A DNA stretch of 6,063 nucleotides. It comes from a virus. Taxonomy: Duplodnaviria; Heunggongvirae; Uroviricota; Caudoviricetes. The notes beneath the pieces are model-generated. The model did not search any database, was not told the origin of the DNA, and saw nothing but the letters and a program-made list of their open reading frames with translations. Made by a program: the position numbers and the translations under genes. The stretch lies in IMG/VR virus record IMGVR_UViG_2706794672_000006, one strand, 5' to 3'. Positions 3,697 through 3,828 of this stretch are shown here, piece by piece (the stretch's first letter is position 1; every line of letters begins with the position of its first letter).

Positions 3697-3715
3697 CTGC
3701 TTTTGCGCAAAGCAG
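3697..3715. repeat. 7-bp inverted repeat CTGCTTT / AAAGCAG with 5-nt loop, about 50 nt upstream of the methyltransferase start
   Basis: Arms at 3697-3703 and 3709-3715 read from the sequence. Confidence 0.5.
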
Positions 3716-3756
3716 TGGGCCTGAGGTTTGCTTGTGAACCCAACGCATGAGCAGAT

Positions 3757-3787
3757 GGCTGGTGGGTGCCCCTAACACCCACCAGCC
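3757..3787. promoter_or_regulatory. Perfect 12-bp palindrome GGCTGGTGGGTG / CACCCACCAGCC with 7-nt spacer; candidate operator or 5'-UTR hairpin
   Basis: Arms at 3757-3768 and 3776-3787 are exact reverse complements. Lies between the winged-helix gene terminator and the methyltransferase start. Immediately upstream on the minus strand is TGTGGTAAAT (3792-3801), the same 10-mer as the pR' extended -10. Confidence 0.55.
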
Positions 3788-3800
3788 GCCCATTTACCAC

Positions 3801-3828
3801 AAATAAAAAAGCCTTCACTGCGGAAGGC
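3801..3828 (-). terminator. Intrinsic terminator directly after the small winged-helix-like gene
   Basis: Minus strand reads GCCTTC-cgcagt-GAAGGC followed by TTTTTTATTT. The stem contains the TGA stop codon (3815-3817). Confidence 0.6.

Follow-up and report, generated by a model that had tools for sequence, protein, structure and literature searches.

The window analysed here is a 6,063-nucleotide stretch of a Caudoviricetes genome (IMG/VR record IMGVR_UViG_2706794672_000006), the minus strand of which carries the late-regulatory region of a lambdoid (Stx-type) prophage. The genes and signals on this strand are, in order, RusA, the Q antiterminator, pR'/tR' (4236-4130), a 65-amino-acid winged helix-turn-helix (wHTH)-like open reading frame (ORF; 4012-3815), an intrinsic terminator (3828-3811), a leader (3810-3665), and a DNA methyltransferase gene (from 3664), which is followed by a second pR'/tR' copy, two tRNA genes, and the STnc100 small RNA (sRNA). 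An initial annotation of the leader had singled out a 10-mer that echoes the -10 region of pR', a perfect palindrome, and a small CTGCTTT/AAAGCAG repeat. Comparison with homologous leaders indicates that these are not separate oddities: the palindrome, the "-10 echo", and the small hairpin all belong to a single conserved, cis-acting RNA of about 145 nucleotides (nt). Its pairing pattern suggests a two-state control of methyltransferase translation.

The methyltransferase leader and its conservation

The unmasked part of the methyltransferase gene (2692-3664, minus strand) encodes an N6/N4 DNA methyltransferase with a PF01555 match (E = 6e-45). By sequence the enzyme is a beta-class N6/N4 member of the M.EcoGI/II family, and its likeness to M.EcoGII itself runs via the enzyme of phage 1720a-02, with which it shares 95% amino-acid identity and which Murray et al. 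named as very similar to M.EcoGII (PMC5778455). M.EcoGII is a nonspecific adenine methyltransferase that acts on DNA and also on RNA in hybrids, is silent in its lysogen, and is harmful under constitutive expression (PMC5778455).

All three features of the initial annotation are present in the window. The CTGCTTT and AAAGCAG arms lie at 3697-3703 and 3709-3715, and the methyltransferase ATG (3664-3662) begins 33 nt past this last hairpin and 51 nt from its 5' edge, in keeping with the "about 50 nt" first given. The terminator said to precede the leader was borne out as well. It consists of a hairpin, GCCTTCCGCAGTGAAGGC (3811-3828, minus strand), and a U-tract, TTTTTTATTT (3801-3810), at the 3' end of the wHTH-like ORF, with the stop codon of that ORF in the hairpin loop. 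A hairpin of variable sequence was found at the same position in 71 of 104 distinct upstream contexts and was absent from Morganellaceae. Folding of 152 nt of the leader gave -63.4 kcal/mol (z = -4.5 versus shuffles), consistent with its earlier description as highly structured.

A covariance-model search of the window returned a single match over the full model length (130.2 bits, E = 8.6e-25). This match places the element at 3659-3805 on the minus strand, so that it reaches 3 nt into the methyltransferase ORF. Genes of this methyltransferase family are preceded by about 150 distinct homologous leaders, which lie after the Q antiterminator and before the lysis genes in lambdoid prophages throughout the Enterobacterales. 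When the methyltransferase protein was searched against GTDB species genomes, homologues with the same leader upstream had 61 to 98% amino-acid identity, and the approximately 145 nt were nearly identical even before homologues with only 61 to 80% protein identity. The hosts included Salmonella, Klebsiella, Enterobacter, Citrobacter, Kosakonia, Mixta, Buttiauxella, Rosenbergiella, Providencia, Proteus, and Morganella. The region comprising the small ORF and the leader is present in 2269 of 5426 complete Escherichia coli genomes (ca. 40%), as well as in Stx2 phages including phiP27 and 1720a-02, where the element lies just upstream of tRNA and stx genes.

The leader is tied to one gene family. 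A DNA-pattern scan of IMG/VR recovered 113 distinct copies, 110 of which were followed by the methyltransferase gene. The order Q, small ORF, leader, methyltransferase, and holin/endolysin is kept with three different Q families, and the small ORF, which belongs to the phrog_331 family (3815-4012, minus strand, in the window), sits upstream of 74 of 95 leaders. Over 325 genome pairs, mean leader identity was 0.82, compared with 0.75, 0.82, and 0.44 at codon positions 1, 2, and 3, and leader identity exceeded that of codon position 3 in 324 of the pairs. The element thus combines a fixed position before one gene family with purifying selection and the sense-strand covariation described below, as is typical of a structured cis-regulatory leader.

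No Rfam 15 family matched the leader at its gathering threshold; the best score was to P26 on the opposite strand (24.2 bits versus a threshold of 36), and all others had E values of at least 0.09. RefSeq carries no annotation in the leader gap. Full-text literature searches with the leader sequence, and for M.EcoGII together with leader or riboswitch, found no description, although their coverage was incomplete and an earlier description is possible. The element is, apparently, undescribed. Two further identities were considered and set aside. The Rfam tRNA model gave no match apart from the two genuine tRNA genes, which argues against a tRNA-like element. An antitermination element resembling ops, put, or a Q site was likewise left aside; GGCGG is common to the leader and ops, but the key T6 is absent.

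Hairpin 1 and the alternative pairings downstream of it

The palindrome, here called hairpin 1 (3757-3787, minus strand), is a perfect 12-bp inverted repeat of GGCTGGTGGGTG (3757-3768) and CACCCACCAGCC (3776-3787) around a 7-nt loop. No perfect inverted repeat of 12 bp arose in 300 composition-matched shuffles. The hairpin is G+C rich, but no U-tract follows either arm on either strand, and it is not a terminator, in agreement with the initial annotation, which had thought one unlikely. In this variant each arm also holds the Chi octamer GCTGGTGG, one on each strand, a point not remarked in the initial annotation.

Covariation was evaluated in alignments fitted by a covariance model whose only prior structures were hairpin 1 and the small 3' hairpin (P3), since RNAalifold on plain MAFFT alignments proved too conservative and was hampered by the placement of insertions and deletions. 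In these alignments 96.7 to 97.5% of hairpin 1 cells were paired, and 8 of the 12 pairs had changes on both sides. Non-Watson-Crick cells comprised 73 G·U but just 12 A·C. An excess of this kind points to selection of hairpin 1 as RNA on the strand of the methyltransferase message. Selection on the sense strand also accounts for the contrast between a G/U-rich 5' arm that hardly varies and a 3' arm that drifts through C-to-T and A-to-G changes. The arms in Providencia and Proteus read GACUGUAAAGGUG and CACCCUUACAGUC, with compensatory changes, and in leader L259 the whole stem has been recoded to GACAGUGAGGAUG and CAUCCCCACUGUC. Many other E. coli copies carry one or two G·U pairs (CACUCACCAGCC or CACCUGCCAGCC), and other genera have a bulged G. 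Thus, of the arm conservation proposed as a check in the initial annotation, the helix is kept but the perfect palindrome is one minority variant of a hairpin in which G·U pairs or a bulge are usual. The substitution pattern indicates that the palindrome forms a hairpin in the sense RNA. As first offered, it may act in the 5' untranslated region, perhaps in processing or stabilization.

Downstream of hairpin 1 the leader can form two mutually exclusive sets of helices. Segment X (AUGGGC, 3788-3793, minus strand like all segments that follow) immediately precedes hairpin 1 and holds a conserved AUG; it can pair with segment A (UGCUCAU, 3747-3753) via GCUCAU or, through its UGGGC, with segment B (GCCCA, 3716-3720). 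Between A and B lies GGGUUCACAAGCA (3729-3741), which contains the motif GRUCAC and segment A' (AAGC). Next come P3 (CUGCUUU-GCGCA-AAAGCAG, 3697-3715), which is the third feature of the initial annotation, and hairpin P4 (UGAGCCU ... AGGCUUA, 3672-3694), the 3' strand of which holds segment D (GCUU, 3673-3676). In the first fold model X pairs with A, and GRUCA-c-AAGC pairs with GCUU-ac-UGAUC just 5' of the methyltransferase AUG, which gives two long-range helices, LR1 (GRUCA with UGAUC) and LR2 (A' with D). In the second, A forms a local helix, P2, as its 5' strand with ACAAGC, a three-way junction is closed by X and GCCCA, and GCUUAC is taken up in P4, which is mutually exclusive with LR2.

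The covariation scores of both fold models exceeded those of 500 of 500 shuffles and of all slid controls. Alignment columns 78 to 81, which read AAGC in Enterobacteriaceae and GGAC in Morganellaceae, covary with both of their mutually exclusive partners, in P2 (pair types UA52/CG38, GC80/AU9, and UA32/CG25/AU9) and in LR2 (AU52/GC18/GU18, AU55/GC17, and GC54/AU36). LR1 positions were 85 to 98% paired, X:A was 97.7 to 99% paired with one compensatory change (L269), and X:B was 99.8 to 100% paired with one compensatory change (L015) and one break (L269). In the single lineage L269, columns 16 (in X), 60 (in A), and 78 (in A') have changed together, and both X:A and P2 are preserved. P4 was 78 to 91% paired, its closing pair being of the types GC66/AU5/GU3. 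The core of P3 (GCUUU/AAAGC) was 92 to 98% paired and almost never varies; P3 is therefore conserved but unproven by covariation. A further pairing may involve the 5' end of the leader. Its UGUGR is complementary to the invariant UCACR within the GRUCAC region in 99.3% of cells, with one-sided changes only, and could form a pseudoknot with UCACR or compete with UGAUC for it. A long-range helix P0 (CUGUG with CAYAG) was a further candidate, outside the pairings that were counted.

A probable two-state leader and translation of the methyltransferase

The long-range helices reach the initiation region, GRUCA and AAGC being paired with UGAUC and GCUU at positions -2 to -13 relative to the methyltransferase AUG. 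No canonical Shine-Dalgarno (SD) sequence is present within 12 nt upstream of that AUG. Instead, UGAUCC lies directly before it (UGAUCC plus AUG, 3662-3670), and [U/G]GAUC is nearly invariant in the family. The arrangement UGAUC-N-AUG is complementary to GGAUCA at the 3' end of 16S rRNA, and it could serve as an SD-like element. The cis partner of UGAUC takes the forms GAUCAC (39 of 93 variants) and GGUCAC; GAUCAC is identical to this part of the 16S rRNA, and GGUCAC copies it. GRUCAC may therefore be an anti-SD mimic that hides the SD-like element. The leader does not encode an N-terminal extension of the enzyme, since the UGA in UGAUC is a stop codon in that frame.

One of two exclusive pairings buries the bases just 5' of the AUG, and the leader consequently looks like a two-state translational switch. 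From its conservation, its strict gene linkage, the RNA-type covariation of hairpin 1, P2, and LR2, and the folding energetics we infer an effect on translation, and we consider it probable that the leader is such a switch in M.EcoGI/II-family methyltransferase mRNAs, with off as its default state. The leader would be transcribed within the Q-dependent late operon, and its segments would follow a 1:2 / 2:3 / 3:4 logic of mutually exclusive helices. In the closed fold, X (AUGGGC) would pair with A (GCUCAU), lengthening hairpin 1 into a rod; A' (AAGC), thus freed, and the 16S-like GRUCAC would pair with D (GCUU) and UGAUC, and the ribosome-binding region would be buried. In the open fold, A would pair with A' (P2), X with B (GCCCA) to close the three-way junction, and D would lie in P4, which would release UGAUC-N-AUG. 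In constrained folding the closed fold was favored over the junction fold by 2.6 to 13.4 kcal/mol in 9 of 10 sequences, with a difference of 4.5 kcal/mol for the window. Because the closed fold is the more stable, translation would be off by default, which would protect the lysogen from leaky read-through. During lytic growth some event may shift the leader to the open fold; candidates are the binding of a protein, an RNase III cut in the rod, a ribosome on or near X, and a small ligand.

Several observations weigh against the two-state switch. Used by itself, RNAalifold finds no more of the structure than hairpin 1, X:B, and part of P3. In P2 and LR2, many double changes stem from one clade, the Morganellaceae; with related sequences and so many changes from a single clade, independent compensatory events are few and the shuffle statistics are inflated. 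X:A and X:B each depend on a single compensatory sequence, LR1 and UGUGR:UCACR have only one-sided changes, and LR1 has a U·U mismatch in this window. The IMG/VR pattern preselected X, UCAC, and B, and the invariance of these segments in alignments A3 and A4 is thus partly by construction. Homologues in Xenorhabdus and Photorhabdus have only a shortened, diverged leader (24 to 30 bits).

A conserved two-state leader would provide a concrete, testable posttranscriptional explanation for the silence of the methyltransferase, adding a layer of control atop Q antitermination and two terminators. Enzymes of the M.EcoGII type methylate every adenine, serve as research tools, and harm cells when constitutive. 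The silence of M.EcoGII in lysogens was previously left at the prophage genes being off (PMC5778455). The element is also a cheap target for studies of RNA structure and phage regulation, and a candidate regulatory part. A more far-reaching proposal, which we advance only tentatively, is that the leader represents a new class of translational ON-switch that is common in E. coli prophages. Its junction would sense a small molecule or a phage or host factor, and a 16S-like GGAUCAC would hide UGAUC, so that a toxic methyltransferase is licensed only in lytic growth.

Candidate triggers and other readings of the leader

The strict linkage to one gene favors a protein as the trigger, either the methyltransferase itself, which binds nucleic acids nonspecifically, or the phrog_331 wHTH protein. 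Ribosomal-protein leaders and the translational operators of T4 genes 32 and 43 are precedents for leaders that are set by a bound protein. It is possible, although less likely than not, that one of these proteins binds the leader RNA and sets the switch. The association of the leader with a single family in the IMG/VR copies, its travel with the methyltransferase across different Q types, and the frequent presence of the small ORF upstream would all be expected, and the activity of M.EcoGII on DNA and on RNA in hybrids (PMC5778455) would suit the methyltransferase in this role. However, no protein site could be identified in the leader sequence, and the phrog_331 protein could not be a universal factor because 21 of the 95 leaders lack the small ORF.

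Processing by an RNase is a somewhat less likely trigger. The rod formed by X:A and hairpin 1 (ca. 18 to 20 bp) could be a substrate for RNase III, or UGUGRAAAU a site for RNase E, and cleavage would either free A, opening the switch, or leave a 5' hairpin that stabilizes the methyltransferase mRNA. RNase III would call for about two turns of nearly continuous double-stranded RNA, and the rod of the window has a perfect 12-bp stem stacked on 6 bp across a 4-nt internal loop, with extra loop-closing pairs; there is also A/U-rich single strand between two hairpins. RNase III-processed leaders are known in lambda (the N leader) and in T7. The leaders of lambda N, lambda cIII, and T7 early mRNAs share with the present one a long near-perfect stem in a 5' leader, structure-dependent translation, and a lambdoid setting. 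However, the leader described here has no sequence similarity to them, lies in a late operon, and is only a candidate for cleavage. In most genera, moreover, hairpin 1 is shorter and has a bulge or G·U pairs. Cleavage by itself would leave the covariation of P2 and LR2 unexplained, and it is better regarded as a possible trigger than as an alternative to the switch.

A small-molecule riboswitch is a still less probable form of the two-state leader. The three-way junction of X:B, hairpin 1, and P2 would be the aptamer, and a ligand, with S-adenosylmethionine (SAM) and S-adenosylhomocysteine (SAH) as candidates, would stabilize the open fold. The multistem junction, the near-invariant bases in its junction and loops, and a mutually exclusive expression platform are in line with this possibility, as is the 3 to 13 kcal/mol of extra stabilization that the open fold would need. 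Three-way-junction ON riboswitches such as the add adenine riboswitch likewise have a short P1-like closing helix, comparable to X:B, that competes with a platform masking the start, and an open state that is disfavored without a cofactor. In contrast to these riboswitches, the leader has no Rfam match, is found before one gene family, and has a hairpin 1 that is far longer and more G+C rich than the arms of purine riboswitches. A riboswitch would be expected before several genes of a pathway, whereas the leader precedes the methyltransferase only. No likeness to SAM, SAH, or other Rfam 15 riboswitches was found even at E values of up to 10, and X:B, the closing helix, depends on one compensatory change and is broken in L269.

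The initial annotation had suggested a Q-independent promoter for the methyltransferase, and this now appears unlikely. The proposed -10 element lies at the 5' end of the leader, where the UGUGRAAAU consensus derived from family-wide comparison takes the local form UGUGGUAAAU (3792-3801, minus strand). As DNA the 10-mer TGTGGTAAAT at this position is identical to the extended -10 sequences of both pR' copies (2398-2407 and 4205-4214), three matches where 0.01 would be expected. With TGTGGTAAAT as an extended -10 element, transcription would start near GGGCGG and hairpin 1 would be the 5'-terminal stem of the transcript. The position of the 10-mer directly after a terminator and the invariance of T(-7) together with the GGG that follows it are consistent with a promoter, as is the finding that about one-third of the family (ca. 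32 of 98 variants) read TGTGAAAAT, with TGn, A-11, and T-7. However, two-thirds of the variants lack A-11. The form of the segment in the family as a whole is UGUG-(R or 1-3 nt)-AAAUGGGC, so that the spacing between TGTG and AAT varies by 1 to 3 nt, and no -35 element is conserved. The window itself departs from an extended -10 element, because position -7 is G in TG-G-TAAATG and position -11 is T in the alternative hexamer, GTAAAT. A promoter scan of 2300-4300 returned no sites, and none was found at the leader in L026 or L075. A constitutive promoter would also be unexpected for a toxic enzyme that is silent in lysogens (PMC5778455).

The resemblance to pR' is likewise confined. The lambda-type pR' with its short terminated StxS-type RNA (PMC7547250) has in this window TGTGGTAAAT in both copies and ATGGGCG in its initial transcribed region, but similarity to the leader does not extend beyond these two blocks or to other Q/pR' types. 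Where the pR' sequence is unrelated, phages lack the echo and keep TGTGRAAAT in the leader. The exact identity of the 10-mer is therefore a property of this Q/pR' type and not a general link.

Translational attenuation is improbable, although the 1:2 / 2:3 / 3:4 architecture invites it. In the manner of the ermC and cat leaders, a ribosome at the AUG in X, or one terminating at the nearby stop of the small upstream ORF (uORF), would melt X:A and hairpin 1, and the freed A would pair with A', exposing the methyltransferase start. As in ermC and cat there are four segments with exclusive helices, a default fold that buries the ribosome-binding region, and an upstream AUG in segment 1; ermC, too, encodes a methyltransferase that needs tight control. 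The AUG in X is present in nearly all full-length leaders. In the window it opens a mini-ORF (3793-3692, 33 codons) that overlaps by AUGA with a second uORF (3695-3657, 12 codons), which in turn overlaps the methyltransferase AUG and stops 5 nt past it. In Morganellaceae the stop of the upstream ORF lies about 10 nt ahead of X. However, the mini-ORF is conserved in neither peptide sequence nor length (7 to 49 codons), it has no proper SD sequence, its AUG is itself buried in X:A, and L269 lacks the AUG yet keeps the pairing by compensation. The leader also differs from those of ermC and cat in having no conserved leader peptide or drug-sensing sequence, a noncanonical SD-like element, and a long invariant hairpin between segments 1 and 2. 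Two specific candidates for a translated leader were rejected. The leader peptide MGGWWVL, with its tandem Trp codons, is not conserved, having an early stop in L048 and no AUG in L269. A coupling uORF starting from the conserved (G/A/U)UGAGCC is 4 to 20 codons long and stops early in L017, L030, L043, and L045.

Least probable is a DNA-level element. It would be either a dimeric operator, bound for example by the wHTH protein like a C-box, or two convergent Chi sites that serve as a signal for RecBCD or recombination where mosaic segments join. Such an element is already largely refuted as the conserved function. Locally the Chi pair is attractive. The octamer is present in both arms (3758-3765 on the plus strand and 3779-3786 on the minus strand), six Chi sites occur in 5.1 kb of unmasked sequence versus 0.17 expected, and homology to other prophages breaks in or beside the hairpin in L004, L005, and L006. 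However, of 96 variants, 77 have the sense Chi and only 10 the antisense Chi, and the sense Chi is lost in Providencia and Proteus (Morganellaceae) with the compensatory changes that keep the hairpin. Thus Chi is not what is conserved, and the Chi pair was dropped. An operator, which had been one of the first suggestions, would suit the small HTH gene that adjoins the palindrome, and C-protein/C-box systems likewise have such a gene just upstream of a methyltransferase gene, with the two separated by a palindrome. A C-box is a DNA operator that controls transcription through conserved, symmetric half-sites, whereas this palindrome evolves as an RNA helix, and the HTH gene is missing upstream of 21 of 95 leaders. 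The asymmetric drift of its arms, with G·U preserved on the sense strand, and the recoding of whole arms that stay complementary (L259, Providencia) do not fit a conserved protein half-site. The operator, promoter, and Chi readings of the palindrome, tempting as they are, are corrected by these results.

Other features of the window

The six Chi octamers of the window lie at 2959-2972, 3758-3786, 4094-4101, and 5502-5509, and four of them are on the sense strand of the late transcript. One pair forms a 14-bp palindrome, CCACCAGCTGGTGG, inside the methyltransferase ORF. Shortened remnants of the leader, with the 5' end UGUGGUAAAUGGGCGG and all or half of hairpin 1, are fused to unrelated genes in L004 (2738-2790) and in L005 and L006 (2738-2770). 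Homology in these remnants ends inside or right after the hairpin, and the hairpin thus marks a recurrent mosaic junction.

The cassette of small ORF, leader, and methyltransferase is flanked by the two pR'/tR' copies, which form a 119-nt direct repeat (2317-2435 and 4124-4242) that is 96% identical, with 1807 nt from start to start. In the closest genome, L001, the tRNA genes directly follow the methyltransferase gene and the second pR' copy is missing. The arrangement in the window therefore looks like the insertion or duplication of a cassette that could be excised by homologous recombination. The two tRNA genes of the window, at 2037-2110 and 2214-2286 on the minus strand, follow the second pR'/tR' copy, comparable to ileZ, argN, and argO before stx in Stx phages.

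A second conserved noncoding block lies upstream of the phrog_331 ORF (4013-4110 in the window, 2080-2158 in L026, 2085-2163 in L075, and 2120-2199 in L053). It reads ACTTGCTG ... CAGAGTTAY ... TGTGT ... and is common to genomes from E. coli through Photorhabdus despite their differing Q and pR' sequences. A 9-mer of this block, CAGAGTTAC, recurs in the P4 loop of many methyltransferase leaders.

Farther from the leader, the STnc100 sRNA is a full-length Rfam match at 847-1036 on the minus strand (133.6 bits versus a gathering threshold of 47). At one end of the window, 5811-6063 is a fragment of an insertion sequence (annotated as transposase, and beside IS21-family istB in its matches) that adjoins the phage early-late region and is multicopy in 4769 of 5426 E. 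coli genomes. On the plus strand, a 111-amino-acid ORF (486-824) is similar to the anti-adapter IraM, for which L005 has an annotation near that position, and a second perfect inverted repeat of 12 bp, TCCTTATGGACT-10 nt-AGTCCATAAGGA (791-824), lies at the end of this ORF.

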